From: an uncultured Clostridia bacterium
GTDB lineage: Bacteria; Bacillota; Clostridia; Peptostreptococcales; Anaerovoracaceae
Length of the DNA stretch: 64,000 nucleotides
Direction of reading: 5' to 3'
Assembly (NCBI GenBank): GCA_945828095.1
Contig: CALZOZ010000001.1
Coordinates: 4,652-68,651, forward strand
Shown: positions 5,816 through 36,682 of the stretch, in pieces
How the letters are laid out: each line of letters starts with the position of its first letter
Numbering within the stretch: the stretch's first letter is position 1
Program-made: the position numbers and the translations under genes
The notes under the pieces: model-generated
Seen by the model: the letters and a program-made list of their open reading frames with translations, nothing else
Database searches by the model: none
Told to the model about the DNA's origin: nothing

Positions 5816-6469
5816 GTGGAAAAAAATATGATTTCAAGGAAAGGCAGAAGGTGTATGATCGGGCTGGCTGCCGTGCTTGCGGTGCTTGCAGCATATATAA
5901 CCTATCAGGTAGGAGTCGTCTACCAGACAGACCCGCTGCCCCTGGATCTGGCAGTGCAGAAGGCGTTTTTCTCACTAAGAGGACCCCTTCTCAATCCCCT
6001 GGTGATTGCGGTTACTCATCTGTCGGATACGGTAACTATCGTAGCATTCTGTGCCATACTCCTCATACTGCCTAATCGGAAAAAATATGGATTGCCTGTT
6101 TCTCTTGCGTCTTTGGGAGGCCTGGTAATTTACAAGCCCATGAAACATATTTTCCTCAGGGCAAGGCCGGATGCAGCACTTCATCTGGTAAAGCAGGGAG
6201 GCTTTTCTTTTCCGAGCGGCCACTCTGTTACATCGGTGATTTTTTATGGTGTTCTCATTTATCTTTTGAACAGACACTGCAAAAATGATAAGCTGAGAAA
6301 AGTACTTACAGTAATTTGCGGCTTTTTGGCTTTGACTATAGGGCCGAGCAGGATTTATGTGGGAGTCCACTGGCCTACAGATGTTTTGGCAGGATGGTGC
6401 ATAGGAGGTGCCGTTCTGATGGTTTCAATATGCATATTAGAAAGGATTTACTATGGGCCTGACCGTTAA
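5816..6469 (+). CDS. PAP2-family phosphatase (membrane)
   Basis: KxxxxxxRP, PSGHS and SRIYVGVHWPTD acid-phosphatase motifs; several TM segments. Confidence 0.8.
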   Translation: MEKNMISRKGRRCMIGLAAVLAVLAAYITYQVGVVYQTDPLPLDLAVQKAFFSLRGPLLNPLVIAVTHLSDTVTIVAFCAILLILPNRKKYGLPVSLASLGGLVIYKPMKHIFLRARPDAALHLVKQGGFSFPSGHSVTSVIFYGVLIYLLNRHCKNDKLRKVLTVICGFLALTIGPSRIYVGVHWPTDVLAGWCIGGAVLMVSICILERIYYGPDR

Positions 6470-8818: not shown

Positions 8819-9754
8819 ATGAAAAAGCAACCAGTATTAGTTATTATGGCTGCCGGAATGGGCTCAAGATTCGGCGGTCTGAAACAGATAGAACCGGTCA
8901 GCGACAAAGGAGAACTTATCATCGACTTTTCGCTGTACGATGCGGTGATGGCAGGATTTAAAAAGGCCATATTCGTAATCAAAAAGGAGAACGAGGAAGA
9001 CTTCAGAAGGCTTCTTGATGATAAGGCAGGAAAATATATAGACATAGAGTATGTATATCAGGAGCTTGAGGACCTGCCTGAAGGATATAGCGTGCCTGAA
9101 GGAAGGCAGAAGCCGTGGGGAACGGCCCATGCAGTTATGGCGGCAAGAAAGAAAGTGGACGGACCTTTTGCTGTAGTCAATTCTGATGACTACTATGGTC
9201 CGGGGGCTTTCCAGTCCATGTATGACTTCCTGGAAAATGCAGAAGACGATGAAAAGTATAACTACTGCATGGTAGGCTACGATATAGAAAACACCTTGAC
9301 CGAAAACGGATTCGTGTCTCGCGGGGTATGTGAAATTTCAGAGAAAGGACTTCTCGCCAAAATCACCGAGAGAACCAAAATCCAGTGGCAGGGCGAAAAA
9401 ATCGTCTTTGAAGAGGATGGCGGAGATGGTGCGGAGCCTGTTCTTACGGAGCTTTCCAGAGGTACCGTGGTGTCCATGAACTTCTGGGGCTTTACAGCAT
9501 CCATGCTGGCTGAGATGGAATCGGGATTCCCTGCTTTTCTGGATAAAGCACTGGCCGAGAACCCTATGAAGGGAGAATACTTCCTGCCGGGTGTGGTGGA
9601 CAGACTGATTCATGAAAACAAGGCACAGGTTAAAGTCCTTCGCTCCCGCGACCGCTGGTACGGCGTGACCTACAAGGAAGACAAGCAGAGCGTGGTGGAT
9701 GCGCTCCAGTCTATGAAGGATAAGGGTGAATACCCGGATGTACTGTGGAAGTAG
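8819..9754 (+). CDS. sugar-phosphate nucleotidyltransferase family protein
   Basis: N-terminal VLVIMAAGMGSRFGGLKQ (GxGxR NTP-transferase loop). Start at ATG 8819 behind GGGAGG. Confidence 0.7.
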   Translation: MKKQPVLVIMAAGMGSRFGGLKQIEPVSDKGELIIDFSLYDAVMAGFKKAIFVIKKENEEDFRRLLDDKAGKYIDIEYVYQELEDLPEGYSVPEGRQKPWGTAHAVMAARKKVDGPFAVVNSDDYYGPGAFQSMYDFLENAEDDEKYNYCMVGYDIENTLTENGFVSRGVCEISEKGLLAKITERTKIQWQGEKIVFEEDGGDGAEPVLTELSRGTVVSMNFWGFTASMLAEMESGFPAFLDKALAENPMKGEYFLPGVVDRLIHENKAQVKVLRSRDRWYGVTYKEDKQSVVDALQSMKDKGEYPDVLWK

Positions 9755-9769
9755 GAGGATATAAAAATT

Positions 9770-10798
9770 ATGGATAAAAGGTACTATGTCAGCGCCATGG
9801 ACTGCTGGACAGGGCGTGTGGACAGCGCAGATGATTACGATGCTTTCAGGTGGCACCAGTGGGTTAAGCCGCTGGATTTAAACGAAGACAATAAGCCTTT
9901 TAAGGGAAAGCTGGCTTTTGGAATTGTGGGCTTTTGCAGTGAGCAGGGCGTGCAGAGAAACAAGGGCAGAGTGGGTACGGCTCTGGCACCGGACTTTATA
10001 AGAAAGCAGATGTCAAACCTGCCATGCAGCTTTTCAGAAAAGGTTGAGATATACGATGCAGGAAACATACTTTGTCAGGAGATTTCCATGGAGGAAGGAC
10101 AGCGCATGCTTGGAGAAGCTGTGGAGAAACTTCTCGACCTGAATCTTTTCCCTATAGTGCTGGGAGGCGGCCATGAGACAACCTTCGGACATTTTCAGGG
10201 ACAGTTTAACAGCATAAAAAAGAAAGGTAAAAAGCCGGACATCGGCATCGTAAATTTTGATGCTCACTTCGACCTGAGACCTTATGATAACGGCAGTTCC
10301 TCGGGTTCCATGTTCAGACAGATTTACGATATATGCATGGAGGAGGGCTGCAAATACGGATACCTGCCTTTGGGAATCCAGCAGCACAGCAACACAGTGA
10401 GCCTGTTTAAGAAAGCCAAGGAAATAGGCGTAAACTATGTGCTGGCCAGAATGTTCCAGTACGGCAGCACCGCTTCTGTTCTCGAAAAGATCGACACCTT
10501 TATGTATAGTCATAAGGATGCGTATATAACGATCTGCACCGATGTGTTCAGTTCGGCATTTGCGCCGGGAGTAAGCGCAACCCAGTCTCTGGGACTTGAT
10601 CCGGAGGTTGTGATCCCGATGATTAAGCATATTCTCAGAACCAGGAAGGTAAAGGGCTTTGATATATGTGAAATTTCACCGAGATTCGACCAGGATAACA
10701 CCACAGCCAATCTGGGAGCCGTTATAATCTTTTCTGTGGTGAATACTCTCTGCAAGCTTCACGGACTGGGGCTTACCATGGAGGGAGACATTTTCTAA
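9770..10798 (+). CDS. hutG: formimidoylglutamase (arginase/ureohydrolase family)
   Basis: GGGHETTFG, NFDAHFDLR and DVFSSAFAPG Mn-ligand motifs, plus a HutG-like N-terminus (WTGRVD...). Confidence 0.8.
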   Translation: MDKRYYVSAMDCWTGRVDSADDYDAFRWHQWVKPLDLNEDNKPFKGKLAFGIVGFCSEQGVQRNKGRVGTALAPDFIRKQMSNLPCSFSEKVEIYDAGNILCQEISMEEGQRMLGEAVEKLLDLNLFPIVLGGGHETTFGHFQGQFNSIKKKGKKPDIGIVNFDAHFDLRPYDNGSSSGSMFRQIYDICMEEGCKYGYLPLGIQQHSNTVSLFKKAKEIGVNYVLARMFQYGSTASVLEKIDTFMYSHKDAYITICTDVFSSAFAPGVSATQSLGLDPEVVIPMIKHILRTRKVKGFDICEISPRFDQDNTTANLGAVIIFSVVNTLCKLHGLGLTMEGDIF

Positions 10799-10805
10799 AA
10801 AACAC

Positions 10806-10833
10806 TTGCAATTTCCGGATTTTATAGTATAAT
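10806..10833 (+). promoter_or_regulatory. sigma-70-like promoter for rpsF-ssb-rpsR
   Basis: TTGCAA-N16-TATAAT. Confidence 0.5.
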
Positions 10834-10838
10834 AAATA

Positions 10839-10886
10839 GGCATGGTTTTGTCCATGCGAATCTCTGCGACGAGACAGGCTCGTCGC
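10839..10886 (+). promoter_or_regulatory. structured rpsF 5' leader (two hairpins); possible S6:S18 autoregulatory leader
   Basis: Hairpins GCATGG-TTTTGT-CCATGC (10839..10856) and GCGACGAG-ACAGG-CTCGTCGC (10866..10886), between the promoter and the RBS. Confidence 0.35.
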
Positions 10887-10913
10887 CATACAGTCCACAG
10901 GGAGGTGAAAAGA

Positions 10914-11201
10914 ATGACTAAATATGAAGTTATGTTCATTATCAATCCTACTTTAGAAGACGAAAAGAAAGATGCGACAGTAGAGACAGTTCAGTCCATT
11001 ATTGCTGCAGATGGTGAAGTTGAAAAAGTAGACGTTTGGGGAATGAGAAAGCTTGCATATCCTATCGACAAGAAGGAAGAAGGATACTATGTTGTAGTTG
11101 AATTCGCAGGAAGCCCATCATTACCTAAGGAACTTGACAGAAGACTGAGAATCTCAGACAACGTTATGAGACACATCATCATCAACAAGGACGAAAAATA
11201 G
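10914..11201 (+). CDS. rpsF: 30S ribosomal protein S6
   Basis: MTKYEVMFIINP...VWGMRKLAYPI. Start at ATG 10914 behind GGAGG. Confidence 0.95.
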   Translation: MTKYEVMFIINPTLEDEKKDATVETVQSIIAADGEVEKVDVWGMRKLAYPIDKKEEGYYVVVEFAGSPSLPKELDRRLRISDNVMRHIIINKDEK

Positions 11202-11211
11202 GAGGGTGTAA

Positions 11212-11655
11212 ATGAACAGTGTTGTACTAATCGGAAGATTGACCAGAGACCCGGAGGTCAGATACACAGCAGGAACACAGATGGCGGTATGCACTTTCAC
11301 AGTTGCAATCGACAGACCTGTAAGATCCGGCGGCGAAAAGCAGACCGACTTTCCGAGAGTAACGGTTTTCGGCAAGCAGGCTGAGAACTGCGAAAGATTC
11401 CTTGCCAAGGGCAGACTGGTCGGAGTCCAGGGAAGACTGCAGACAGGCAGTTATACAAACAAAGACGGTGCAACCGTTTACACCACAGATGTCGTAGCTG
11501 ACAGAGTAGAATTTTTAGAATGGGGAGACAGACCTCAGGGCGGACAGAGCCAGTCATATTCACGTGGCGAAGCTCAGCAGTCACAGCCGCAGTCAACGGG
11601 CTTTGATGAAGCACCTGCAGGATTTTCTGCTATTGACGAAGATATCCCGTTCTAA
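11212..11655 (+). CDS. ssb: single-stranded DNA-binding protein
   Basis: MNSVVLIGRLTRDPEVRYT OB-fold; Gly/Gln-rich linker; acidic tip DEDIPF. Confidence 0.95.
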   Translation: MNSVVLIGRLTRDPEVRYTAGTQMAVCTFTVAIDRPVRSGGEKQTDFPRVTVFGKQAENCERFLAKGRLVGVQGRLQTGSYTNKDGATVYTTDVVADRVEFLEWGDRPQGGQSQSYSRGEAQQSQPQSTGFDEAPAGFSAIDEDIPF

Positions 11656-11673
11656 GAGAAAGGAGATAAAGAC

Positions 11674-11910
11674 ATGATGGAAAAGAGACGCGGCGGCGGA
11701 ATGAGAAGAAAGAAAGTTTGTCAGTTCTGCGCCGATAAGACAGAAAGAATCGATTACAAGGACGTAGAAAAGTTAAGAAGATACGTTACTGAAAGAGGCA
11801 AGATTTTACCTAAGAGAATCACTGGTACTTGCGCTATGCACCAGAGAGAAGTAACTACTGCTATCAAGAGAGCAAGAATCGTAGCATTACTTCCTTATGT
11901 TGCTGAGTAA
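11674..11910 (+). CDS. rpsR: 30S ribosomal protein S18
   Basis: [10 protein letters not shown]...[26 protein letters not shown]. Confidence 0.95.
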
Positions 11911-11936
11911 TCGACAATATAACAAAGAACTTGAGA

Positions 11937-11968
11937 ACAGACCTTCAAATGCGAGGGTCTGTTTTTTT
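11937..11968 (+). terminator. rho-independent terminator after rpsR
   Basis: ACAGACC-loop-GGTCTG followed by T7. Confidence 0.75.
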
Positions 11969-11971
11969 ATT

Positions 11972-12039
11972 GCATTTCAGGCCGAAAAAAAGGCATTTCA
12001 GGCGAAATTCGACATTTTTTGACAAAAAGTAGATATACT
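11972..12039 (+). promoter_or_regulatory. LytTR-type direct-repeat box plus -10 hexamer
   Basis: GCATTTCAG (11972..11980)-N12-GCATTTCAG (11993..12001), then GCGAAATTCGACA, then TATACT (12034..12039) 32 nt after repeat 2. Matches the ComE-type aCAnTTcaG-N12 architecture. Confidence 0.6.
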
Positions 12040-12089
12040 TTGTGTATACCATAATATAAACAAAGTAAGAGAAAGGACTGAAAAATAAA

Positions 12090-12947
12090 ATGACTGTGAG
12101 GCAGTGGAAAAGAGTCATAACAGGATTTGTAGTTTTACTTATAATAACACTGGGAGCCACGGCCGCGTATGCAGAAGTCAGGTATCAGAGACTAGCAACA
12201 GAATTTGAAGGAGAAGCGGTGGAAGAGTCCGCAGATAGTGAACAGAACCTAAGCATTGATTATCAGAAAAAATATGATAATTTATATGTTCAAAATGACT
12301 TTGAATACAAGGAAGCCCAGGACAGTATCTGCTATTTGACCTTTGATGACGGACCAAGTACGGAGAATACAGAAAAAATTCTCGACATATTGAAAAAATA
12401 CAATATTAAAGCAACCTTCTTTGTTATTTACAAAGACACAGAGAAAGAAAAGGCCATGTATAAACGTATTGTGGAAGAGGGGCACACCATAGGTGTACAT
12501 ACAGCCTCCCACGATTACGAAAAAATCTATTCTTCCGTGGATGCATATCTGAAGGATTTTAATAAAATTGCCAGCCATATTGAAGAAATAACCGGCGAAA
12601 AACCGGAAATATTCAGATTTCCGGGAGGCTCTGTAAACTCATATAACGGAGCTGTATATATGCAGATTGTATCAGAAATGATGAGGCGTGGGTATACATA
12701 CTACGACTGGAATGTGGGATCAGGAGATGCGAGCTATGGAACAGCCTCGAAGAACTGGATTGTAGGAAATGTGGTAAACGGGGTAGCAAAGGAAGGCAGT
12801 AATATAATTCTCATGCACGATACAAACGCAAAAGATACAACAGTACAGGCATTGCCGGAGATTATAGAAAGGCTTTCGGCTCAAGGCTATAGATTTGATA
12901 AGCTGACAAAGGAAGTTAAACCGGTAACATTCAGCTATCTCAGCTAA
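12090..12947 (+). CDS. polysaccharide deacetylase (NodB/CE4) family protein, membrane-anchored
   Basis: TFDDGPS and HTASH motifs; N-terminal TM segment. Confidence 0.85.
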   Translation: MTVRQWKRVITGFVVLLIITLGATAAYAEVRYQRLATEFEGEAVEESADSEQNLSIDYQKKYDNLYVQNDFEYKEAQDSICYLTFDDGPSTENTEKILDILKKYNIKATFFVIYKDTEKEKAMYKRIVEEGHTIGVHTASHDYEKIYSSVDAYLKDFNKIASHIEEITGEKPEIFRFPGGSVNSYNGAVYMQIVSEMMRRGYTYYDWNVGSGDASYGTASKNWIVGNVVNGVAKEGSNIILMHDTNAKDTTVQALPEIIERLSAQGYRFDKLTKEVKPVTFSYLS

Positions 12948-12974
12948 AGGATAAATATAAGGAAAGGAAAAACA

Positions 12975-13544
12975 ATGAACAGCAAAGAAAATTTTGTACA
13001 GGCAATCAGGGAGCTTACGGGCTTTAATGATGGAACGTTTAATGAGGAAAAAACAATTTCTCAGGATGCGGAAGCAGCCGGATACGGCGAAGGTCAGGAG
13101 CGCAGCATATATCCGGTCCGCTTTTCTACAGAGAATAAAACCCATATTTCCGCAGGCATGGCAGTAAAAGGAATGATTCAGTCAAAAAGCAATGTTCTGG
13201 TAGAGGGCAGCGTGCAGGGTGACATTCATTCAGAAAACGTTCTTTTGAGGGGTGCCGAAGTAAAGGGCAATCTGCATATTTCTTCAAAGGCAGATATATG
13301 TGAAAACACGAAAATTGTTGGAAACATCTTTGCAGAAAACATAGTTGTTTCCGGACATATCAAAGGAAACCTGCAGATAGGAGATACAACCGCGCTTAAA
13401 CCCGGCGGATACGTTGAAGGCGATATTAAAACAGGAAGTATAATATCGGAATACGGCTCAGGAATAAGAGGTGCCGTTTCCACAGAGCACAGCTGTATTT
13501 GTGATGATGTAAAGTTTGATTTAGGAGGTGCCATCAATGAGTAG
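12975..13544 (+). CDS. bactofilin family protein
   Basis: Beta-helical repeats: V(E/K)G.V.GDI... (VEGSVQGDIHS, VKGNLHIS, VSGHIKGNLQI, VEGDIKTG). Confidence 0.8.
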   Translation: MNSKENFVQAIRELTGFNDGTFNEEKTISQDAEAAGYGEGQERSIYPVRFSTENKTHISAGMAVKGMIQSKSNVLVEGSVQGDIHSENVLLRGAEVKGNLHISSKADICENTKIVGNIFAENIVVSGHIKGNLQIGDTTALKPGGYVEGDIKTGSIISEYGSGIRGAVSTEHSCICDDVKFDLGGAINE

Positions 13545-14118
13545 AAAGAAAAGAAAACTAAATTCGAAAGAACAGGAAACAAGAGCCGCAAATCAAAATA
13601 TAGAGCTAATACAGGAAGATGAAATAGTTGAAGAACAAGAGACAATGGAACAGCAGGAAGGGCAGGAGCTGATAGGAGAACAGGAACCTGTCCAGGATGC
13701 GCCTGCTCAGCAGCTGGGAATTATATCGACAGATACCATGGTTACAGGCGATATTTTTACAGACGGACATCTTCTGATTGATGGTATTGTTGAGGGAGAT
13801 GTTTTTGCAAAGGGAGATATTAAGGTTACAGGAAAAATAAAGGGCAGAGTATGCTGCCTTAATATAGAATCCTTCGGTCAGATTCAAGCTGATGAAATAG
13901 AAGTAAAAGACACAGTAATCCTCGGAGAAGGTATGACCATAAAGGGTGATGTTATCTGCAGGGATGCTGTTATAAGCGGGAGAGTAGACGGAAACCTGTG
14001 TGTTTCAGGCAATCTGTCGCTGTCCAAATCTGCTGTCATCACCGGAGATATAAAGACCTCATCAATGAGTGCAGAGATGGGTGCAAAGATTAACGGAAAC
14101 ATTTTGATGGACAAATAG
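13537..14118 (+). CDS. bactofilin family protein with E/Q-rich N-terminal tail
   Basis: IDGIVEGDVFAKGDIKVTGKIKG...ISGRVDGNLCVSG...ITGDIKT repeats. ATG 13537 lies 7 nt after AGGAGG. Confidence 0.8.
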   Translation: MSRKKRKLNSKEQETRAANQNIELIQEDEIVEEQETMEQQEGQELIGEQEPVQDAPAQQLGIISTDTMVTGDIFTDGHLLIDGIVEGDVFAKGDIKVTGKIKGRVCCLNIESFGQIQADEIEVKDTVILGEGMTIKGDVICRDAVISGRVDGNLCVSGNLSLSKSAVITGDIKTSSMSAEMGAKINGNILMDK

Positions 14119-14122
14119 CCAA

Positions 14123-15403
14123 TCAGTTTTGTCTGAGGACAACACGCATTGTAAAAACGCCGTCTGCTGCATCGAAAGAATACATTCCGCCGTGACGGGC
14201 TGCAATGTTGCTTATGCTTTTTACACCCAGCCCATGGAGAGGCCGTGTTGACAGTGGAAGACCGTCTTTTATTATGACTTCATCCACATAGGAGTTTCTT
14301 ATTGAAATCAGGAGATTATCTTTTCGGGTATTGAAATCAATCTCAATCCATCTGTTGTCACTGCTGCATCTGGATGCGGCATGAATGGCGTTTTCTATTC
14401 CGTTTGACAAAAGGGTGCAAATCTCAGTTTCAGGAATAGTAAGAATCTCAGGGATGTTCACCTTGGCAGCAAACCTTATACCTGATCTTTCGGCCATCGT
14501 TCCATAATAAGATAGGATAAGATTGGTGGATTTATTTTTGCAGTACTGCTTAGGTGTGAGACGGTCAATGTCCCCCTGAGCAGAGCTGATATACTGCAGT
14601 GCTTTTTCTGTATCGCCATTTTTGACATATTCTCCAAGAATCATAAAATGATGACGCATATCATGGCGGTATGTAGCTGTCTCTTCCAGAGATTTCTTAA
14701 GAATGGCAAGTTCGGAATCAGACTGTTTCAATTCCATGGAAAGAACGGAATTCTCAAGCTCTGTCGAATACCTCTTTTTTAGTTCTCTGTGGTACATAGA
14801 TATGAACACAATGTAAAACAGGATTGAAATTGTGGGAAGGGACTCATTGACTACAATGATATCTGCATAGAGAATATTCGAATACACCGTTGAAGCATAA
14901 TCAAAAATATAGTAGAAAGCCGGCAGGCTGCCGAGAAAGAAAAGGGTCTGCCTGGAGTAGTTCATGGCCTCGTATGCAGGTTTTACCAGGAATATATGAA
15001 GAATTGCATAGGAAATAAATACCGCAATCGTATAACATATCTCAGAAAGCAGTGCAGAGTTTGAAATATACAGAACTAAGATGCTCGTCCATTTTGGAAT
15101 CTGGCAGCACAGGTATGCTGTAAACACGGACACAATGGAAATCCATACAGGCCTTTTCATAAAAAGGAACAATGCGCATATAAGGGGAATATGTGTAATC
15201 AGAGGATAGAGCTTCTCTGTTGCCTGAGTTCCGAATATGAAGCTGACAACTATCTGCGCAATGAGAAGAACTGCGATAATGACTGCAGTAAGATGTTTAT
15301 CTTTTTTTGAAGTCCATCCTCCCGAGATGTCGATGGACAAAAGAACTCCATAAATTAAAATCAGACCATAATTTAATAAGGCCATAATTGCAGCGAAATT
15401 CAT
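14123..15403 (-). CDS. HPK10-type (AgrC/ComD-like) GHKL sensor histidine kinase
   Basis: About 6 N-terminal TM helices; H-box ATYRHDMRHH; N-box LLSNGIENAIHA; G-box HGLGVKSI. Confidence 0.85.
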   Translation of the reverse strand: MNFAAIMALLNYGLILIYGVLLSIDISGGWTSKKDKHLTAVIIAVLLIAQIVVSFIFGTQATEKLYPLITHIPLICALFLFMKRPVWISIVSVFTAYLCCQIPKWTSILVLYISNSALLSEICYTIAVFISYAILHIFLVKPAYEAMNYSRQTLFFLGSLPAFYYIFDYASTVYSNILYADIIVVNESLPTISILFYIVFISMYHRELKKRYSTELENSVLSMELKQSDSELAILKKSLEETATYRHDMRHHFMILGEYVKNGDTEKALQYISSAQGDIDRLTPKQYCKNKSTNLILSYYGTMAERSGIRFAAKVNIPEILTIPETEICTLLSNGIENAIHAASRCSSDNRWIEIDFNTRKDNLLISIRNSYVDEVIIKDGLPLSTRPLHGLGVKSISNIAARHGGMYSFDAADGVFTMRVVLRQN

Positions 15404-15404
15404 T

Positions 15405-16124
15405 TTATACCTCTTTAGTAAACAGATAGTTCATATACTGCTCCTTTATATCCTTGGCCAGAAGTCTGGAAACCGGGAAATGTCTGCCACTGTATGTTGT
15501 GATTTCTCCGCTTTCAAAAGAACGGATGTAGTCCATGTTGAGTATATATGAACGGTGGATTTTTATAAATTCTTTTCTCTCTAAAAATTTATTTTCATAA
15601 TCGGAAAGGGCTCCCCTTGTTTCTTTTTCACTTCCGTCATTTAAGTAAAAAACAAGATGTTTGTTATATACCTCGAGACATTCGACCCTTTCAAAGGGAA
15701 GATTTAAGATCCCCATAGGCGTATATATTACAAAGGATTCCTGTTTGGCTGTAATCTCATGAACAATCCTGTCTAATACAGGAAACAATGTTTCTTCCCG
15801 CACAGGTTTCAGCAGGTAATAAAAGGCACCTACGGAGTAGCTTTCAATCGCAAATTCCTTTGAGGAGGTCAGGAAGACTATTTTTATTTCTTCGTTGTAT
15901 TTCCTTATTTCTCGAGCAGCATGCATTCCCGTGAACCCCGGCATAATAATATCCAGAAGCAGAATGTCATAGTATGTTTTTTTAAGACCGTCCAGTAAGT
16001 CCTCAGCACAGATATAGGTATCAACTGCAACAGGAATATTTTTAACTTTTTCGTATTCAAGCAGAATCTCTTCAACCTTCTCAAGCAGTTCCCTGCTGTC
16101 GTCACATACTGCAATCTTAAGCAT
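15405..16124 (-). CDS. LytTR-family response regulator
   Basis: Receiver domain (MLKIAVCDD...LLLDIIMPG) plus C-terminal LytTR domain (FIKIHRSYILNMDYI). Confidence 0.9.
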   Translation of the reverse strand: MLKIAVCDDSRELLEKVEEILLEYEKVKNIPVAVDTYICAEDLLDGLKKTYYDILLLDIIMPGFTGMHAAREIRKYNEEIKIVFLTSSKEFAIESYSVGAFYYLLKPVREETLFPVLDRIVHEITAKQESFVIYTPMGILNLPFERVECLEVYNKHLVFYLNDGSEKETRGALSDYENKFLERKEFIKIHRSYILNMDYIRSFESGEITTYSGRHFPVSRLLAKDIKEQYMNYLFTKEV

Positions 16125-16179
16125 ATGTTGCCCTCCTTATACAATTTTAGCATAGCACAGGCGATTAGTAAAGTAGGCA

Positions 16180-16247
16180 ACATTTCAGACCGCCAAAATG
16201 ACATTTCGGGCGAAATTCGACAGTTTTCGCCTTAAAAAGACTATAAT
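16180..16247 (+). promoter_or_regulatory. LytTR-type direct-repeat box plus -10 hexamer
   Basis: ACATTTCAG (16180..16188)-N12-ACATTTCGG (16201..16209), the same GCGAAATTCGACA block, and TATAAT (16242..16247), again 32 nt after repeat 2. Confidence 0.6.
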
Positions 16248-16315
16248 TTCGATGTATAGTTATACGAAAATTTTGAAAAAGAAAAAAGAGATGCGAGAAG
16301 GAAGGAGTGAGCGCC

Positions 16316-17815
16316 ATGAAAAAAAGACTATTCACTATGCTCCTGGCATTGGCTATAGTTTTCACCATGAGCTTTGCAAGTGTGCCGGCTTTTGCGGCAT
16401 CGGCAGAAGGAATCGCTATTTCCACGCCGGAAGACCTTAAGGCTATGGAAAACAACCCGTCAGGCAGCTATTATCTGGCAAACGACATCGAGGTGCCTGC
16501 CAATCTGACGCTGTTTACAAGCTATAATAATCCGTTTACCGGCACATTGGACGGCAACGGACACGCCATCAAGGGATATACCTACATTTCCAATGGGGAG
16601 TGGAACGATAATATCGCACTCTTTGCCTATGCGAAAAATGCGACCTTCAAAAACCTGAAGATGACGAATGTCAATATCAGCCTAAACCAGGCAGGTACTG
16701 TGGCTGCACTGGTTGCTGCTTCCGAAAACTGTAAATTCACCGACATCAGCGTTTACGGCAAAATCACCGGTAAGTGGCTGCGTCAGGCTGCAGGCGTCGT
16801 TGCTTACAGCTATGAAGGCGGCACACTGACAGGTTGCAAGAACACTGCAGATATTACGGTTACGGACGCCACTGAGGGAAGCAGCGCAGCAGGTGTTGCC
16901 GGGTTCATAGGTACTGAGGGCTCCATGAAAAACTGCTCCAACACCGGAAATATCAGTATCAGCGGTAACATCGAAGAAGACGGTTTCAGCGCAGCAGGTG
17001 TTGCCAATTTCATAGGAAAGACCACTTCCTGCAAGAACTCCGGTGCCATCACCGTATCGGCAACAGGAAACGGACAGATGATTGAAGCCTGCACGGCTGC
17101 AGGTGTTGCAGGCGAAGTTGAAACTGCGGTTTCCTGCAGCAATACCGGCAAGGTCAGCATGAACGCCACCATTTCGGCCGTAGAACCGCATAAGGTAGGT
17201 GGCGTATTTGGGTATGTATCAAAGTCGGCAAGCAAATGTTACAACAAAGGTGCAGTCAGCTATAGCGGCAGCTCCTATCGGGGTGTTTATGCGGGCGGCC
17301 TGGCTGCAAGAGCTATTAAGGTCAGCCAGTCCTATAACAAGGGGGCTGTAACCGTCAAGATGCTGAGTACCAAGAGAGCGGATGAAAACAAGGCCGGCGG
17401 ACTCTGCGGCATGGTTACGGACATGCGCTACTGCTATAACACAGGCAGCATCACTGTAACCGGTGTAGCTTTTGTCGGCGGTATCGCAGGCTATGCAGAT
17501 CCTTGGGATAACAAGGTCGTATCCAACTACAATACCGGCAAGATCAAAGCCTCTACAAAGGGAACATTCAAAGGCCAGGTCATCGGCGGTTATGAAGGAG
17601 CAGAAGTCGTACGGACGCGCAATATCTACGATAACTACTATACCGGTTCGGGCAAGGCGTACGGTGCTGCGTCGGTTACATGGAAGGACTGGGTTGCCAA
17701 GGCCACCAAGGTTTCCTCCATCAGTGAATCAAAGTGCCCTAAACTAAGCTCTAAATACTGGACATATTCCAGCAAATATAAGAGGATGATCCTGAAGAAC
17801 AATAAGGAAAAATAA
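16316..17815 (+). CDS. secreted GLUG-repeat protein
   Basis: Signal peptide ...SVPAFAASAEG. About 8 GLUG-like repeats (AAGVAGF...CSNTGNI, AGGLCGM...CYNTGSI, VGGIAGY...NYNTGKI). Confidence 0.7.
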   Translation: MKKRLFTMLLALAIVFTMSFASVPAFAASAEGIAISTPEDLKAMENNPSGSYYLANDIEVPANLTLFTSYNNPFTGTLDGNGHAIKGYTYISNGEWNDNIALFAYAKNATFKNLKMTNVNISLNQAGTVAALVAASENCKFTDISVYGKITGKWLRQAAGVVAYSYEGGTLTGCKNTADITVTDATEGSSAAGVAGFIGTEGSMKNCSNTGNISISGNIEEDGFSAAGVANFIGKTTSCKNSGAITVSATGNGQMIEACTAAGVAGEVETAVSCSNTGKVSMNATISAVEPHKVGGVFGYVSKSASKCYNKGAVSYSGSSYRGVYAGGLAARAIKVSQSYNKGAVTVKMLSTKRADENKAGGLCGMVTDMRYCYNTGSITVTGVAFVGGIAGYADPWDNKVVSNYNTGKIKASTKGTFKGQVIGGYEGAEVVRTRNIYDNYYTGSGKAYGAASVTWKDWVAKATKVSSISESKCPKLSSKYWTYSSKYKRMILKNNKEK

Positions 17816-18029
17816 AAACTAAGGAAAGGAATGAAAAAACATAAGGAACTAAATACTACTACAAAGTACGCGGATATGTACTGATTGACGGTCAGAAGTA
17901 CTACACCGAAGACTCCCTTAAGGCAATCAGAACAATAAAATAGGGCTTGACTGGTGCAACGCTATTTTATATTATTAATATAACTGAAGCATTCAGTAAA
18001 AACATTCGCAGAAGGAGGTTTTTGAGACC

Positions 18030-19193
18030 GTGAAAAAGAAAATTGCTATAATCCTGTCTTTATTGATGTGCGTGAGCATGTTCCCGATGGATGCACAAGC
18101 TGCCATAAAGAGCGCAGGTGAGCCTGCAGAGGTAGAAAGCCTCATTTCCAGCGAAAACTTAGAGCATAACTTCGTAAAAGTGACAGCTATGGGGAATACA
18201 CTTCAGGTTGAGGTGGAAACATCGGTGAAAGCAGCGGAGTACAATTATAATTTGGTGAAAGTCGGGGCTACAAAGGGTGAATGGGCTGGCAGAGTATATC
18301 CAACCGATATGGGGGAATATAATAAGTTCTCTTTTTCCCTTAATAATACCGGAAACAAGATGGCTCGTGCATTAAACGGGGATTACATTTTGATGATTAC
18401 CAAGAAAATTGGGGCAAAAAATAATCCTGTCATCTACAAAAACTGCTGCTTCCGTGTTACCAGCGGACAGTTTAAGATTTTGCAGTACGATAAAATCATA
18501 GAAGAAAACGCACGCCTTAACAGCAAGGCTAACAAAGTCAGCGTAAGTAACTTTAAAAAGACCAACTTAAGCGACTTAAAGACTCTTGTATTCCGTGACC
18601 CGGTGACTAAGAAGGTTGCTCCTGTAACCACCAAGAAGGTAAAGTATTTCAAGACCGTTTCCGATAAGGTGGTGAAAGGCGCAGATTCCGACTACGAGAA
18701 GCTGCTTAAAATCTATGAATACATCGCAGAGAATTTTTACTACGATAATATTGCCTTTTCCACCGGTACGAAGCAGTATGTAGACCCATATCGCAATCTA
18801 TACAACATGCGAAACAAAAAAAAGAGTGCTAATAGCGAAAACGGAAAGGTTGCAACCACCTGCGTAGGTTATGCCGCAGCTGTGGCTGCACTGGCGAGAG
18901 CTCAGGGCATTCCGACCAGAATTGTAAACGGACACCACATCAGTTTAGGCACCGGCGGCTTCAACAGCTGGTCCACAGAGAAGGGCATAACCACCCTGGA
19001 TCACTGGTGGGCAGAGTGCTATGTGGACGGACGCTGGATAACCGTGGATGCTACCCCGGGCAACAGCAACAAATGGAACCGCAGCACCAACAAATGGACC
19101 TACACCGGCATTACAAACTACATCTACTTTGACCCGACTCCTGAGCAGCTGGCAACATCACACATGATACTGGAGACCAAAGGAGTCAAATAG
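18030..19193 (+). CDS. secreted transglutaminase-like (cysteine protease fold) protein
   Basis: Signal peptide. Core TTCVGYAAAVAALARAQGIPTRIV...DHWWAECYVDGRWITVD (Cys-His-Asp). GTG start. Confidence 0.8.
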   Translation: MKKKIAIILSLLMCVSMFPMDAQAAIKSAGEPAEVESLISSENLEHNFVKVTAMGNTLQVEVETSVKAAEYNYNLVKVGATKGEWAGRVYPTDMGEYNKFSFSLNNTGNKMARALNGDYILMITKKIGAKNNPVIYKNCCFRVTSGQFKILQYDKIIEENARLNSKANKVSVSNFKKTNLSDLKTLVFRDPVTKKVAPVTTKKVKYFKTVSDKVVKGADSDYEKLLKIYEYIAENFYYDNIAFSTGTKQYVDPYRNLYNMRNKKKSANSENGKVATTCVGYAAAVAALARAQGIPTRIVNGHHISLGTGGFNSWSTEKGITTLDHWWAECYVDGRWITVDATPGNSNKWNRSTNKWTYTGITNYIYFDPTPEQLATSHMILETKGVK

Positions 19194-19211
19194 CAAATAA
19201 TAAGACAAACT

Positions 19212-19259
19212 AACGAAACGGACAATCTTGCAGCTAAAACCGCAGATTGTCCGCTTTTT
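19212..19259 (+). terminator. terminator hairpin; copy 1 of a 48-nt direct repeat
   Basis: CGGACAATCTTGCAG-loop-CGCAGATTGTCCG followed by T5. 46/48 identical to 20265..20312. Confidence 0.65.
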
Positions 19260-19540
19260 CTTTGGAAACAGATCCCGGTTTTGTCTGTCTTTTTATTGGC
19301 GTTGTACAATTTGACCTGAAACGAGATTATTTACAACATGACACCCATGAAACGGTCTCCAAAAGCTTTGGAAAATGTGTGATGTTGTAAAAATAGGGGC
19401 TTCTTTGATTTTTTTACAACATCGGAGTGTTCCTGTCAAACCATCGAAAAAGTTAGAGAGCCTTGATTTTTTGTCAATTGCAGGGTATAGTATTGGTACA
19501 GGAAAGTGTACGGAAAATACCGGTGTGAAAGGAATCTGCC

Positions 19541-19828
19541 ATGGTGAATCTAAAAGAGAGCATAATAAGTGAGATAAAAGATTTGGCCATAAAATGTGGG
19601 GTAGAGAAAGTTATTCTCTTTGGATCCCGGGCACGTGGCGACAATAAAGAGCGGAGTGACATTGATTTAGCAATTGAAGGAGGCAATGCGGCGTTATTTG
19701 CCGTTGAGGCCGAGGAGGAGATACAGACTTTGCTCATGTTTGACATTGTCGATTTGGGCGGATTCGTACAGGATGAACTCAGACAGTCCATCGAGAGAGA
19801 GGGGAAGATTATCTATGAAAAAATTTGA
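19541..19828 (+). CDS. MNT-type nucleotidyltransferase (antitoxin of an MNT/HEPN pair)
   Basis: ILFGSRARGD...SDIDLAI (GSxxxG...DxD pol-beta NTase motif); 95 aa. Confidence 0.85.
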   Translation: MVNLKESIISEIKDLAIKCGVEKVILFGSRARGDNKERSDIDLAIEGGNAALFAVEAEEEIQTLLMFDIVDLGGFVQDELRQSIEREGKIIYEKI

Positions 19829-20210
19829 AAACTTTCAGCGTGCACTCAGAAACTTAGAGGAAATCAGAAAGTGCAAGGAGCCTTATGAGATGATTGTACT
19901 TACGGGGCAGGTGGCGCTGTTTGAGATGTGCTTTGAACAGAGCTGGAAAGCGATGAAGGAGATTCTCGAATACAATGGTTACGATGAGAGCCGGACAGGT
20001 TCCCCGCACAGCATATTAAAGCTTGCATACCAGGCGGGCATGATAGACAATGAGGAATTGTGGGTTGAGGCTCTGGCTGCTCGAAACAATGTGTCCCATG
20101 CGTACAATGAAGGAATTGCTACCAAAATCGTTTCTGAAACAAAGGCTAAATATATTGATATGTTTGAGGCCTTAGAAGAAAAAGTCCAGAGTGACTGGGT
20201 AAGCGTGTAA
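19815..20210 (+). CDS. HEPN / HI0074-family nucleotidyltransferase substrate-binding protein (toxin)
   Basis: MKKFENFQRAL... with an RNNVSH (Rx4H) motif. 14-nt overlap with the MNT gene. The ORF-track start at 19674 is upstream read-through. Confidence 0.85.
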   Translation: MKKFENFQRALRNLEEIRKCKEPYEMIVLTGQVALFEMCFEQSWKAMKEILEYNGYDESRTGSPHSILKLAYQAGMIDNEELWVEALAARNNVSHAYNEGIATKIVSETKAKYIDMFEALEEKVQSDWVSV

Positions 20211-20264
20211 CCCGGGTAACTGAATAAGCGTGGTAAACTAAGGCAACTGAATAGGCGTGTAACA

Positions 20265-20312
20265 AACGAAACGGACAGTCTTGCATCTAAAACCGCAGAT
20301 TGTCCGCTTTTT
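20265..20312 (+). terminator. terminator hairpin; copy 2 of the 48-nt direct repeat
   Basis: Same hairpin plus T-tract as 19212..19259. Confidence 0.65.
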
Positions 20313-20462
20313 TTGTTCTGGAGGCTCAAAACCAGCCTGTTTTAATACAAAAAATGTAAGCGTGGGACATTTGTCCGCTTTTCAAGAGGTTTTGTCCGCG
20401 TTTTTGTCAATAAGCACGGACAACAGCCCCGAGATAAAGGGGTGGCTGTCCGCATACCCTTT

Positions 20463-21344
20463 TTAAAGCCTGTATTTCTCTTCAACCCATCGGCACACAT
20501 AGTCATAAAACCTTGAAGCCGCCGCAGAAAGAAGCCGGCGGTCACGGCATGCAATACCCAGATCTCTGTGTCCTGGCGGGTCCAGCGGAACTGCTGTGAT
20601 ACGGCGATTAAAACCCTGCAGCATCATCATGGACATCAGACTGATGCCCAGACCCTGCTCCACCATGGCGATTACTGCGTGGTCATCGCTTTCCACAAAC
20701 CGGGCATCCGGTTGTATTCGATTCTGATTCAGGATTGCAGTAATCTCGTCCTCTACACCCTCGTTGAGAGCTATATACGGCAGGTCAGGCAGCATGGAGA
20801 TAGAAAAAGTCTCCAAAGCAGCATGTGGGTCATCATCCGCAAAGATTGCCACAATAGGATCTCGGTACATGAACGAAGCTTCCAGTTCAGGATTTGTAGG
20901 ATAAGCCACAAAACCTACATCCACACGGCCGTCAGCAATCCAGCTGACAATCTGGGTGTCAGTTCCATGGAGCAGCTCGAACCTTATTCCCGGATAGTCC
21001 TTATGGAACTTGCTGATAATACCCGGGAGCCACTGAGCAGATACGCTGTTGAAGGTTCCGATGCGGATTAACCCTTCCTTAAGACCGTTGATTTCATCAA
21101 TGAATTCCGAAAGCCTCCGCTGATCATGTAATACCGTTCGTATATACGGAAGCAGAAGCTGCCCTTCCGGAGTAAGCTGCACCCCGTTTCTTCCCCGATT
21201 TAAAAGGCGCACATTCCACTGCTCCTCCAGGGAGTTCAGTGCACGTGTCAGACCGGACTGGGTATACCCAAGTTCCTCCGCGGCCTGTGTCATAGTTCCC
21301 GTTTCCACGGCTTTGATCAAAGCTTCATATTGAGATAGATTCAT
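20463..21344 (-). CDS. LysR-family transcriptional regulator
   Basis: MNLSQYEALIKAVETGTMTQAAEELGYTQSGLTRALNSLE HTH. Start ATG 21344 with GGAGG upstream. Confidence 0.9.
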   Translation of the reverse strand: MNLSQYEALIKAVETGTMTQAAEELGYTQSGLTRALNSLEEQWNVRLLNRGRNGVQLTPEGQLLLPYIRTVLHDQRRLSEFIDEINGLKEGLIRIGTFNSVSAQWLPGIISKFHKDYPGIRFELLHGTDTQIVSWIADGRVDVGFVAYPTNPELEASFMYRDPIVAIFADDDPHAALETFSISMLPDLPYIALNEGVEDEITAILNQNRIQPDARFVESDDHAVIAMVEQGLGISLMSMMMLQGFNRRITAVPLDPPGHRDLGIACRDRRLLSAAASRFYDYVCRWVEEKYRL

Positions 21345-34934: not shown

Positions 34935-35672
34935 ATGAAAGAATTAAAGAAACACAGAGGCAGACTTTTTTTGCGAATAATCGGAATCGCAGTTTGTCTT
35001 GCTGTGTTTCTTTTTTCATTGTTTAATGTGATTTCTATAATTCAGAACTATCGTGAAATTGATAAAACATACGACGAAGCGGCCGGACAATTTACGGAGA
35101 TTCCCTCGCAGACATCAGAGGAAGAGTCAGGTGGCATAGGGGTGCCCGAGGTGGATTTTGATGCCCTGCTTCAGGTTAACAATGATGTAATAGGCTGGAT
35201 ATATATAGAGGGCACAGACATCAGTTACCCTCTGCTTTGCGGCCGTGACAATCAGCAGTACCTCTTTCAGTCCTACGAAAAGAAGTATTTGACGGCAGGC
35301 AGTATCTTTATCGACTACAGATGCAGCCGGGACTTTACCGACAGCCGCATGGTGGTTTACGGACATAACATGCATAACGGAAGTATGTTCGGGAAGCTTG
35401 ACAAGTTCACCAAGGAAAGCTACATGAAAAAGCATCCTTATGTATATATTCTCCTGCCCGGCGGTGAAACGCTCAAATATGAGGTGAAGAAGACATATAA
35501 GGCAGACATTGAGGGTGAAGTTTACAAACTGCCTTCCGGTGAAGCTAAAGATTCTGAAGACAGGAAACTTTACCTTTCCACCTGCACCGAGGACAGCAGC
35601 GATACCCAAAGGTTTGTGGTGGAATGCGATTTTGCTGAATCAGAGGCTGAATCAAGGTCAGAGAAGCAGTAA
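34935..35672 (+). CDS. srtB: class B sortase
   Basis: N-terminal TM; VIGWIYIEGTDISYPL, VVYGHNM and LSTC (catalytic TLxTC-like) motifs. Confidence 0.8.
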   Translation: MKELKKHRGRLFLRIIGIAVCLAVFLFSLFNVISIIQNYREIDKTYDEAAGQFTEIPSQTSEEESGGIGVPEVDFDALLQVNNDVIGWIYIEGTDISYPLLCGRDNQQYLFQSYEKKYLTAGSIFIDYRCSRDFTDSRMVVYGHNMHNGSMFGKLDKFTKESYMKKHPYVYILLPGGETLKYEVKKTYKADIEGEVYKLPSGEAKDSEDRKLYLSTCTEDSSDTQRFVVECDFAESEAESRSEKQ

Positions 35673-35900: not shown

Positions 35901-35972
35901 ACGACCACTTAGAACAAAAAACGACCACTCAGAACATTGCGCTTGTAATCAGGCGCAATTTGTGTTTATACT
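35901..35972 (+). promoter_or_regulatory. direct-repeat box (ACGACCACTYAGAACA x2, 20-bp period) plus TATACT
   Basis: Repeats at 35901..35916 and 35921..35936; TATACT at 35967..35972, 30 nt after repeat 2. Lies immediately upstream of the LytTR regulator gene. Confidence 0.55.
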
Positions 35973-35977
35973 AAGGT

Positions 35978-36682
35978 ATGAAGATTTATATTTGTGATGA
36001 CATGATTGAAATAGTGGAAGCCGTAAAGGCAGAATGTGAGCATTACCTCCAGGCTAAAAATATGGAAGCCGAGGTAGCGGGTGATGTGTTCTTTCCTGAC
36101 GAGCTTGAGGAAGAGGACAAGCGGCCTGATATACTGCTCCTTGATATTGACATGCCAACAAGCAGCGGCATAGAGATAAAAGACCGCATGGAAAAGTATG
36201 AGGACGGACCGTTTATAATATTCATCACCAGCCATGACGAGATGGTTTACGAGGCTTTCGGTAAGAATGTCATAGGCTTCCTTAGAAAACCTGTGGACAG
36301 GGTGCTCTTTGAAAAGGTCATGGACAAGGCGGTGGATTTTTACGAGAGCCGTTTTCTCAGCGTGCAGCTTCCGGGAGGGATTGAGCTGATGTGCCGCGAT
36401 ATTATAGGAATCAAGTCGGAGCATGTGTACAGCACCATAGTGCTGGCTGACGGTGAGCTGAGTATAAGGCGAAGCCTCAAGGAATGGGAGACGCTGCTTC
36501 CGGAGAAGGACTTTCTCAGGATCAATGAGAAGTGGATAATCCACTATGCTTATGTGGATAAGATAAAAGACGATAAGGTAACGCTTAAGAACGGAGAAAG
36601 GCTGGCGGTGAGCCGCAGAAGGAAGCTGCAGCTTCGGGACGGCTACATATCGTATTGTTTGCGAAAGGGAAGGTATAGATGA
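35978..36682 (+). CDS. LytTR-family response regulator
   Basis: MKIYICDD...ILLLDIDMP receiver domain; LytTR C-terminus (FLRINEKWIIHYAYVDKI). Confidence 0.9.
   Translation: MKIYICDDMIEIVEAVKAECEHYLQAKNMEAEVAGDVFFPDELEEEDKRPDILLLDIDMPTSSGIEIKDRMEKYEDGPFIIFITSHDEMVYEAFGKNVIGFLRKPVDRVLFEKVMDKAVDFYESRFLSVQLPGGIELMCRDIIGIKSEHVYSTIVLADGELSIRRSLKEWETLLPEKDFLRINEKWIIHYAYVDKIKDDKVTLKNGERLAVSRRRKLQLRDGYISYCLRKGRYR

Follow-up and report, generated by a model that had tools for sequence, protein, structure and literature searches.

The locus described here lies in the window, that is, the whole 64-kb stretch of DNA that was analysed. It comprises a two-component gene pair on the minus strand enclosed by two direct-repeat boxes, each followed by a promoter and by genes on the plus strand (Table 1). 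The gene calls around the boxes were confirmed by Pfam, and all coordinates of the boxes, the 13-mers and the -10 hexamers in the initial annotation proved correct when read directly from the sequence.

Table 1 Features of the two-component locus and its flanking boxes
Feature	Position	Strand	Details and evidence
rpsR terminator	11938..11968	+	Stem CAGACC/GGTCTG, then T run; sequence; rpsR by Pfam
Box 1, where the neighbouring LytTR regulator is predicted to bind as a tandem dimer	11972..12001	+	GCATTTCAG-N12-GCATTTCAG (repeats at 11972-11980 and 11993-12001); sequence, pattern, matrix
Box 1 core promoter	12002..12039	+	13-mer GCGAAATTCGACA (12002-12014), -10 TATACT (12034-12039); layout compared with PMC6001120 Table 2
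Deacetylase (polysaccharide or peptidoglycan), membrane-anchored	12090..12947	+	Polysacc_deac_1 PF01522, 3.6e-32
Bactofilin 1	12975..13544	+	Pfam PF04519, 2.9e-17
Bactofilin 2	13528..14118	+	Pfam PF04519, 2.8e-23
Histidine kinase, AgrC/ComD type	14123..15403	-	HATPase_c_5 (PF14501, 63.6 bits), H-box RHDMRHH, hydropathy
Response regulator, REC + LytTR	15405..16124	-	Pfam; translation
Regulator-kinase operon promoter	16144..16172	-	TTTACT-17-TGcTAAAAT; invariant in all orthologues examined
Box 2	16180..16209	+	ACATTTCAG-N12-ACATTTCGG (repeats at 16180-16188 and 16201-16209); adjoins the regulator in all orthologous lineages examined
Box 2 core promoter	16210..16247	+	13-mer GCGAAATTCGACA (16210-16222), TCGACA (16217-16222), -10 TATAAT (16242-16247); sequence
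GLUG-repeat/M26-N-like secreted protein, first gene past box 2	16316..17815	+	Pfam Peptidase_M26_N/GLUG; translation; hydropathy
Secreted transglutaminase-core protein	18030..19193	+	Pfam Transglut_core

The response regulator combines a receiver domain (PF00072, 64.4 bits against a cut-off of 30.2), with the phospho-acceptor pocket D8, D9, D58, T86 and K106 intact in the translation, and a LytTR domain at residues 139-230 (PF04397, 53.7 bits against a cut-off of 22.6). Its best full-length match in the PDB was ComE (4cbv, residues 2-227), a remote one (E=1.3e-10), and its best NCBIfam match, BtsR, was far under the cut-off (76.9 against 246 bits). Residues 1-200 of the kinase hold 5-6 hydrophobic segments and form a polytopic sensor, without 5TMR-LYT or GAF domains. 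The reading frames of the two genes abut (15403/15405), and the kinase stop codon is 4 nt from that of the convergent bactofilin 2 gene. For the deacetylase, hydropathy gave one N-terminal transmembrane segment, and its PgdA/PdaB-like NCBIfam matches were all under the curated cut-offs. The GLUG-repeat protein carries a signal peptide, as judged from its translation and hydropathy. Box 2 had been described as facing both the GLUG and the transglutaminase genes. The GLUG gene is indeed the first one downstream, but since the transglutaminase gene lies 215 nt further on and has a promoter-like site of its own (17947-17975), its place in the operon is uncertain, and it may be co-transcribed with the GLUG gene. 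This gap, with its promoter-like site, had been overlooked.

Both boxes consist of 9-bp direct repeats with a 12-nt spacer, and their assignment to the LytTR/ComE architecture was borne out by the published ComE-box table, in which the S. pneumoniae/S. mitis box reads aCAnTTcaG-12-aCAgTTgaG with 31-32 nt to the -10 hexamer (PMC6001120). As in the ComE box, the -10 hexamer of both window boxes lies 32 nt past repeat 2 and the -35 is poor. When compared with the left-repeat consensus aCAnTTcaG (PMC6001120), ACATTTCAG matched at 9/9 and GCATTTCAG and ACATTTCGG at 8/9, so three of the four repeats are 8/9 matches. The earlier statement that neither promoter has a good -35 holds in that none is usable, but a -35-like TCGACA (5/6) does lie inside each 13-mer (12009-12014 for box 1) separated from the -10 by a long 19-nt spacer, and the box 1 promoter also contains a perfect TTGACA at 12019-12024, only 9 nt before TATACT; no -10 was found in the sequence 16-18 nt past this TTGACA. 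In both boxes, an inverted repeat, ATTTC-N4-GAAAT, extends across repeat 2 and the 13-mer. Upstream of box 1, the predicted rpsR terminator separates the downstream operon from ribosomal-protein transcription. The conserved promoter of the regulator-kinase operon, which had also been overlooked, lies on the opposite strand with a gap of 7 nt to the first repeat of box 2. It is a near-consensus sigma-70-type promoter with an extended -10, and box 2 could activate it, repress it or do nothing to it.

The pattern CATTTCRG-N13-CATTTCRG had exactly 2 zero-mismatch matches on both strands of the 64 kb, compared with 1.4e-4 expected from base composition; both lie on the plus strand and at promoters. 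A 30-nt weight matrix was derived from box 2 and from seven boxes that adjoin the regulator in relatives, leaving box 1 out. With this matrix, box 1 reached 34.0 bits and box 2 reached 44.3 bits, against 11.3 bits for the next-best site in the window and 13.1 bits for the best of 20 shuffles. From repeat 1 through the -10, the two promoters are identical at 50/68 positions. No third box was found with the matrix on either strand of the 64-kb window, and "mini-regulon" is used here in this sense, for the 64 kb scanned. When metagenomes were scanned with a strict pattern, no additional clade-type sites turned up away from the regulator. A paralogous LytTR system in the window (35978-37959, with its regulator at 35978-36682) has its own box pair, ACCAYTYAG-N11-ACCACTCAG, 34 nt from a -10 hexamer. 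Since the boxes of this second system are different, the CATTTCRG boxes can be assigned to the adjacent regulator. The same box type also occurs in L056, an unrelated metagenomic locus with a LytTR regulator and kinase, where ACATTTCAG-N12-ACATTTCAG-N32-TATAAT precedes AgrB (PF04647, 6.5e-37) and a 44-51-aa peptide gene, and in L077, where it lies beside a LytTR regulator and is followed by a CstA gene. These two loci argue for a genuine class of LytTR operators.

Box 2 was kept beside the regulator in every orthologous lineage examined, at response-regulator identities of 65-86%. TATAAT or TATACT was found exactly 32 nt past repeat 2 in all seven lineages examined in detail (read in L001/L018, L002/L012, L004/L015, L017, L022 and L098). 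Both repeats, the A-tract of the spacer and the -10 at +32 were retained across these lineages, while the intervening 32 nt and the downstream genes vary. The 13-mer, to which the initial annotation had drawn attention, is present after both boxes but is not separately conserved: the L012, L015 and L022 lineages keep the direct repeats and lack both the 13-mer and the inverted repeat. When L015 is compared with the window, the flanking genes are unrelated, yet the box stays with the regulator. With the exception of L017, which has a membrane-anchored deacetylase there, every lineage carries a gene for a secreted or surface protein past box 2. The downstream genes of the relatives encode GLUG/M26-N and transglutaminase proteins, Big_3/Flg_new_2, a Big_2 protein, a deacetylase, or an 832-aa protein together with S26-like, M73/TasA-like and VWA/SpaA proteins. 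Judged from this comparison, box 2 is the ancestral conserved output, predicted to drive a divergent secreted, surface or cell-envelope gene, and the ancestral target is a surface-protein gene exchanged between lineages.

The CATTTCRG box pair with its adjacent LytTR regulator is well supported at the sequence level as an ordinary case of a known type of switch, and both boxes are probably operators of this regulator. The local mini-regulon proposed earlier, with the adjacent LytTR regulator, two ComE-type sites and two putatively activator-dependent promoters, was strengthened by the published box layout, by the ComE match of the regulator and by the relatives. By analogy with ComD/ComE and AgrC/AgrA, the kinase would sense a signal and phosphorylate D58 of the regulator, which would then dimerise and bind both 9-bp repeats head-to-tail, 21 bp centre to centre. 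Relative to each target promoter, the repeats would thus span about -74 to -45, and the bound regulator would bring RNA polymerase to a promoter with a good -10 and no usable -35. The regulator-kinase operon itself is predicted to be read from the promoter abutting box 2 on the opposite strand.

The two boxes differ in their conservation. Box 1 was seen only in near-identical DNA, namely the window, the strain contig L019, where it is identical, and L017, which has exactly the same repeat 2 and following promoter but a different repeat 1 and spacer. We infer that box 1 is a recent paralogue of the box 2 promoter which captured the deacetylase/two-bactofilin operon in one lineage, and this may illustrate how a regulon grows through a copy of an operator-promoter module. 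The earlier link of the regulator to cell-wall, cytoskeletal and surface genes is therefore retained for the conserved surface output of box 2, whereas the deacetylase-bactofilin link through box 1 is lineage-specific. Since only near-identical copies were seen and L022 has the same operon layout without a matrix-detected site, box 1 could be a neutral recent duplicate. It is conceivable, though unlikely, that box 2 is the sole working operator. In that case box 1 would have arisen recently from the box-2-type promoter, through duplication or gene conversion, and might be redundant or have no function, and the deacetylase-bactofilin operon would be expressed without the regulator. Its restricted occurrence would fit such an origin. 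In L022, deacetylase-bactofilin-bactofilin genes occupy the same place with no box found by the matrix and TTGACT-19-TATACT instead, and more distant relatives carry a bactofilin-bactofilin-deacetylase trio behind an ordinary sigma-70-type promoter, TTGACA-17-TAGAAT. The perfect TTGACA near box 1 points the same way, but it has the wrong distance to TATACT and no other -10 at 16-18 nt. Furthermore, box 1 has two perfect repeats at exactly the 12-nt and 32-nt spacings, the strong rpsR terminator upstream leaves no other evident promoter for the deacetylase operon, and L017 has the deacetylase gene with its box1-type promoter directly divergent to the regulator.

Two other explanations concern what the repeats serve. 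LytTR boxes normally lie about 10 bp upstream of the -35, a norm to which the layout of the window boxes comes close, and LytTR systems are commonly autoregulated through boxes 4-11 bp upstream of it (PMC6193735). Box 2, 7 nt from the TTTACT -35 that is invariant in all orthologues examined, would lie at about -43 to -72 of the regulator promoter, and might mainly autoregulate the regulator-kinase operon, with the outward promoter being incidental. This is rather improbable, as the repeats face away from the regulator gene while published LytTR boxes are sense-oriented, and the regulator promoter, being near-consensus with an extended -10, should need no activator. The outward -10 was moreover kept at exactly +32 in seven lineages despite sequence turnover, and box 1 exists without any divergent gene. 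It is very improbable that a different protein binds the repeats, for example the second LytTR regulator or an unrelated protein recognising ATTTC-N4-GAAAT, or that they are a non-regulatory dispersed repeat. A second regulator is indeed encoded in the window and the inverted repeat is found in both boxes; however, the system of that regulator comes with a distinct box pair, and three lineages (L012, L015 and L022) keep the direct repeats without conserving the inverted repeat or the 13-mer. There are just two copies in 64 kb, both at promoters, and the box has moved together with the regulator into unrelated genomic surroundings.

The regulator had also been called "quorum-sensing-type", which reflects family resemblance only, as no linked peptide precursor, AgrB, exporter or sense-oriented box was detected. 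Neither the window nor the orthologous loci showed anything resembling AgrB in a tblastn search with the L056 AgrB as query (best E=0.39), and their called gene lists held no pre-peptide, AgrB/AgrD or ComC/ComAB genes. The matrix found no sense-oriented box before the kinase-regulator operon on either strand of the window, box 2 being inverted relative to the regulator promoter, and classic auto-induction is thus not apparent. Pherotype-like sensor divergence was not found between the window and L012 (sensor 74-88% identical, catalytic end 66-72%). On these three points (peptide gene, sense box and hypervariable sensor), the window and the orthologous loci give no support to a peptide quorum-sensing circuit of the agr/com/blp type, although a peptide gene may lie elsewhere in the genome.

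The system is like ComD-ComE in its REC+LytTR regulator with D58 and its polytopic HATPase_c_5 kinase. Unlike ComD-ComE, it has no linked comC-like peptide gene or ComAB exporter and no sense-oriented box preceding the two-component operon, and its outputs are secreted and cell-envelope proteins, not competence genes. With agr (AgrC-AgrA, P2/P3 repeats; clostridial agr-like loci) it shares the regulator and kinase families and the paired 9-bp direct repeats in a divergent intergenic region; however, AgrB/AgrD is absent from the window and every orthologous locus, the divergent region has a single box and not one per promoter, and divergence between kinase alleles is uniform along the length, not concentrated in the sensor. 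The S. mutans HdrRM/BrsRM systems follow the same general logic of 9-N12-9 direct repeats upstream of a weak -35 (PMC6193735). The ACCACTTAG-type repeats of S. mutans LytTR systems are exactly the repeat type of the second system in the window, whereas the CATTTCRG boxes differ in sequence. The HdrRM/BrsRM regulators have no receiver domain and are restrained by a membrane inhibitor protein, in contrast to the classical kinase-regulator pair found here. The small size of the regulon, with its one or two local targets, the BtsR match and the CstA gene after the same box type in L077 recall BtsS-BtsR/YpdA-YpdB, but those have a LytS-type kinase, while the present kinase is AgrC/ComD-like and its targets are not transporters.

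These results leave the understanding of how LytTR regulators work unchanged; what is new is the putative link of bactofilins and a cell-wall deacetylase to a ComE/AgrA-family regulator. For an uncharacterised two-component system that belongs to abundant, uncultured Clostridia of the pig and human gut, they define a regulon open to testing, down to its operator, spacing, target genes and predicted start sites. The conservation of the bactofilin-bactofilin-deacetylase trio in more distant relatives hints at a functional unit, of which no description was found in the literature searched. A more speculative reading, to which we give little weight, is that an orphan AgrC/ComD-like receptor that lacks a cognate peptide gene, perhaps eavesdropping on other species, switches on an exchangeable surface-protein cassette and, in this lineage, the conserved bactofilin-bactofilin-peptidoglycan-deacetylase module, and that the convergent box 1 operon, with no terminator before the kinase gene, adds antisense negative feedback on the two-component genes. 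If true, this gut Clostridia bacterium would couple an extracellular cue directly with cytoskeleton-guided modification of its cell wall.

Two predicted ComE-type direct-repeat sites, box 1 and box 2, lie on either side of a two-component pair consisting of a LytTR regulator and an AgrC/ComD-like kinase. The initial annotation had read this arrangement as a putative mini-regulon of a quorum-sensing-type regulator. The finding is real and its interpretation largely right: the sites were observed, as were their layout, conservation and inheritance together with the regulator, and the part of the reading that lacked support was quorum sensing. The gene calls in the box region were checked by Pfam and all confirmed, so the proposed genes, from the deacetylase through the transglutaminase-like protein, stand as assigned. 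The regulator contains the residues D8, D9, D58, T86 and K106, and its top full-length match among solved structures is ComE (entry 4cbv). The kinase has an RHDMRHH H-box and 5-6 hydrophobic segments within its first 200 residues. A signal peptide is present in both the GLUG and the transglutaminase protein, and a single membrane segment at the N terminus of the deacetylase; the bactofilins have neither feature.

Positions of features in the box region and in the second LytTR system of the window
Feature	Position	Strand	Basis or remark
rpsR terminator (good)	11938-11968		directly 5' of box 1
Box 1 repeat 1, GCATTTCAG	11972-11980	+	read from sequence; 12 nt to repeat 2
Box 1 repeat 2, GCATTTCAG	11993-12001	+	read from sequence
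Box 1 13-mer, GCGAAATTCGACA	12002-12014	+	read from sequence
Box 1 -10, TATACT	12034-12039	+	read from sequence
Polysaccharide deacetylase	12090-12947	+	Pfam
Bactofilin	12975-13544	+	Pfam
Bactofilin (second)	13528-14118	+	Pfam
HATPase_c_5 kinase	14123-15403	-	Pfam
REC+LytTR regulator	15405-16124	-	Pfam
Box 2 repeat 1, ACATTTCAG	16180-16188	+	read from sequence; 12 nt to repeat 2
Box 2 repeat 2, ACATTTCGG	16201-16209	+	read from sequence
Box 2 13-mer, GCGAAATTCGACA	16210-16222	+	read from sequence; as in box 1
Box 2 -10, TATAAT	16242-16247	+	read from sequence
M26-N/GLUG protein	16316-17815	+	Pfam
Transglutaminase-core protein	18030-19193	+	Pfam
Second-system box, ACCACTTAG-N11-ACCACTCAG	35904-35932		upstream of own regulator, sense orientation
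-10 of this box, TATACT	35967-35972
Second LytTR regulator	35978-36682		28% identical to first regulator
Second LytTR kinase	36679-37959
Second-system box, ACCATTCAG-N11-ACCACTCAG	37972-38000		faces two unknown genes (38077-38913, 39035-39982)
-10 of this box, TGcTATGAT	38032-38040

Direct reading of the sequence recovered every box, 13-mer and -10 feature that had been described, with 32 nt from repeat 2 to the -10 hexamer in both boxes. Published ComE boxes follow aCAnTTcaG-12-aCAgTTgaG and then 31-32 nt to the -10 (PMC6001120 Table 2), and LytTR repeats are generally 9-12-9, located ~10 bp upstream of the -35 (PMC6193735). The 9-12-9-32 layout of the window is the same as that of the published ComE sites, as had been claimed. 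The match to the pattern is far beyond chance, since two exact CATTTCRG-N13-CATTTCRG matches occur in the window and 1.4e-4 are expected from its base composition. A 30-nt weight matrix built on six relatives' boxes plus box 2, with box 1 left out, scored box 1 at 34 bits, compared with 11.3 for the runner-up in 64 kb and 13.1 for the maximum of the shuffled window. At 17-nt spacing the -35 position is occupied by GACATT or GACAGT, and the sole -35-like hexamer is TCGACA, 19 nt from the -10. This agrees with the earlier remark that neither promoter has a good -35, so that both look activator-dependent, as would be predicted for such sites.

Other signals in the same stretch were considered. 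The 13-mer was rejected as an independent operator because it was present, in full or in part, only in the related loci L017, L018 and L001 and was absent in the L012, L015 and L022 lineages; its identity between the boxes reflects common origin and the -35-like TCGACA. Conservation was also missing for an inverted repeat ATTTC-N4-GAAAT over repeat 2 and the 13-mer, and for a possible third copy of the repeat 21 bp downstream (16202), which is degenerate with 3 mismatches. No riboswitch or other structured RNA turned up in the leaders, as Rfam gave no match at E<=0.1 over 10500-20500.

Orthologues of the regulator, with 65-99% identity, were found in uncultured Clostridia of pig and human gut, and both repeats and the A-tract of the spacer are kept beside them. 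Each of the seven lineages examined closely has TATAAT or TATACT at exactly 32 nt past repeat 2, and the intervening 32 nt largely differ among them. The regulator-side promoter TTTACT-17-TGcTAAAAT is invariant among orthologous loci, and the repeats of box 2 lie at about -43 to -72 of this abutting promoter, in inverted orientation. The gene that the box faces encodes the GLUG/M26-N protein in the window, L012-14 and L022 (regulator identity 100%, 81% and 78%), a 671-aa Big_3/Flg_new_2 protein in L015/16 (74%), a 680-aa Big_2 protein in L098 (65%), and the deacetylase in L017 (86%). In L018/L001 (79%) it encodes an 832-aa protein, followed by signal-peptidase-like, camelysin/TasA-like and VWA/SpaA-like proteins. 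Because the faced gene varies by lineage while the box persists, the operator-promoter module remains with the regulator and its cargo is exchanged. Every lineage except L017 has a secreted or surface protein as this cargo, and L017 has the membrane-anchored deacetylase. The box-led operon of L018 (3120-7762) has Ig-like (the 832-aa protein), S26, M73 and VWA/SpaA-like Pfam matches, all weak, and its predicted products are reminiscent of a TasA/SipW-type fibre or pilus locus. In L019 (1456-1555; same species, regulator 99% identical) a UPF0236-family transposase gene lies within box 2, right after repeat 1 (window ~16189), so that repeat 1 and the regulator are parted from repeat 2 and the outward promoter. 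The insertion is a putative natural operator knock-out in some strains.

A function for box 1 is plausible, though less well secured than one for box 2. The terminator after rpsR adjoins box 1, so the deacetylase-bactofilin operon needs its own promoter. The operon is wholly absent from the L012-14 locus, whose flanks are those of the window: rpsF-ssb-rpsR on one side and GLUG-transglutaminase on the opposite one, at 93-98% amino-acid identity. L022 has deacetylase-bactofilin-bactofilin at the equivalent place, and the candidate box 5' of it is only a degenerate remnant with no matrix match. In distant relatives a bactofilin-bactofilin-deacetylase trio stands behind an ordinary TTGACA-17-TAGAAT promoter with no LytTR system nearby, and the three genes form a conserved module in these more distant Clostridia. 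These loci (L023:1533-3783, L024:148-2398 and L025:6698-8930) have a deacetylase 63-65% identical and a conserved leader sequence. The box 1 and box 2 promoters are identical at 50/68 positions, including all 13 nt past repeat 2, and L017 has a box1-type promoter directly divergent to the regulator; the best reading of box 1 is that it arose recently by copying of the regulator's output promoter. The literature searched gave no report of bactofilins functionally paired with a membrane-anchored deacetylase, and none of a LytTR-bactofilin link.

The quorum-sensing type proposed for the system was weighed against what a peptide auto-induction circuit contains. Neither the window nor the orthologous loci contain an AgrB-like gene, their gene lists show no gene for a peptide or an exporter, and the matrix scan gave no sense-oriented box 5' of the two-component operon. 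Membership of this circuit class is thus not supported by what could be tested, although the pair does resemble ComDE and AgrCA in family. Between the window and L012 the kinase is 78% and the regulator 81% identical, versus 93-98% for the flanking genes, which could be taken for pherotype-like diversification. The kinase sensor is not its most variable part, and the divergence is uniform along both proteins, which argues against this explanation and suggests that the kinase-regulator cassette was replaced between the two lineages, rather than diversified by selection on the sensor. The locus (window 11900-16300 versus L012/L014) looks like a recombination hot spot swapping two-component and surface-protein cassettes. 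The L017 regulator is a mosaic, with the first ~100 residues window-type and the remainder L012-type.

Binding of the CATTTCRG boxes by the second LytTR regulator of the window was also rejected, because that system has its own boxes (consensus ACCAYTYAG-N11-ACCACTCAG), which differ in type and in their 20-bp period; this assigns the CATTTCRG boxes, by prediction, to the adjacent regulator. Both second-system boxes are followed by AACATTG and lie 34 nt before a -10, and the system repeats the same predicted mini-regulon design. A sortase gene (34935-35672) lies upstream of it.

The initial annotation had suggested a motif scan; in the 64-kb window the matrix found no third box. Metagenome contigs were also scanned, in a collection that, like the genome collection, does not include the window's own species. 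A strict box-plus-(-10) pattern gave 79 loci there, ~30 of them chance matches that fall in a 301-aa coding frame of a single abundant organism. The rest are intergenic, several adjoin LytTR regulators or kinases, and every match of this clade lies beside the regulator. In L056, a locus unrelated to that of the window which also encodes a LytTR regulator and kinase, two boxes of the same type (5856-5922, +; 8988-9054, -) precede AgrB (PF04647, 6.5e-37) and an AgrD-like 44-51-aa peptide gene, and at L077:6150-6216 one precedes a CstA gene beside a LytTR regulator. The operator type is thus common among LytTR systems, and the present system is one more case of that kind.

By analogy with ComDE and AgrCA, a signal would reach the kinase, which would phosphorylate D58 of the regulator; a tandem dimer would then assemble on the repeats, which lie at about -74 to -45, and transcription from the box promoters would start near 12046 and 16254. 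Novelty is confined to the predicted targets, namely the bactofilins and deacetylase, and a surface protein that can be exchanged; the system is otherwise a further example of an already known kind of LytTR switch. Bactofilin 2 (+) and the kinase (-) converge, with 4 nt between their stop codons (14118-14123) and no terminator predicted there, so box 1 transcripts would enter the kinase and regulator genes antisense, which could provide negative feedback on both. At the matching junction L022 has a MerR/GyrI-like gene, and the kinase of L015 is followed by a group II intron reverse transcriptase. A nucleotidyltransferase and substrate-binding-protein pair 3' of the transglutaminase gene (19541-20210), kept in relatives, is a candidate MNT/HEPN-type toxin-antitoxin.
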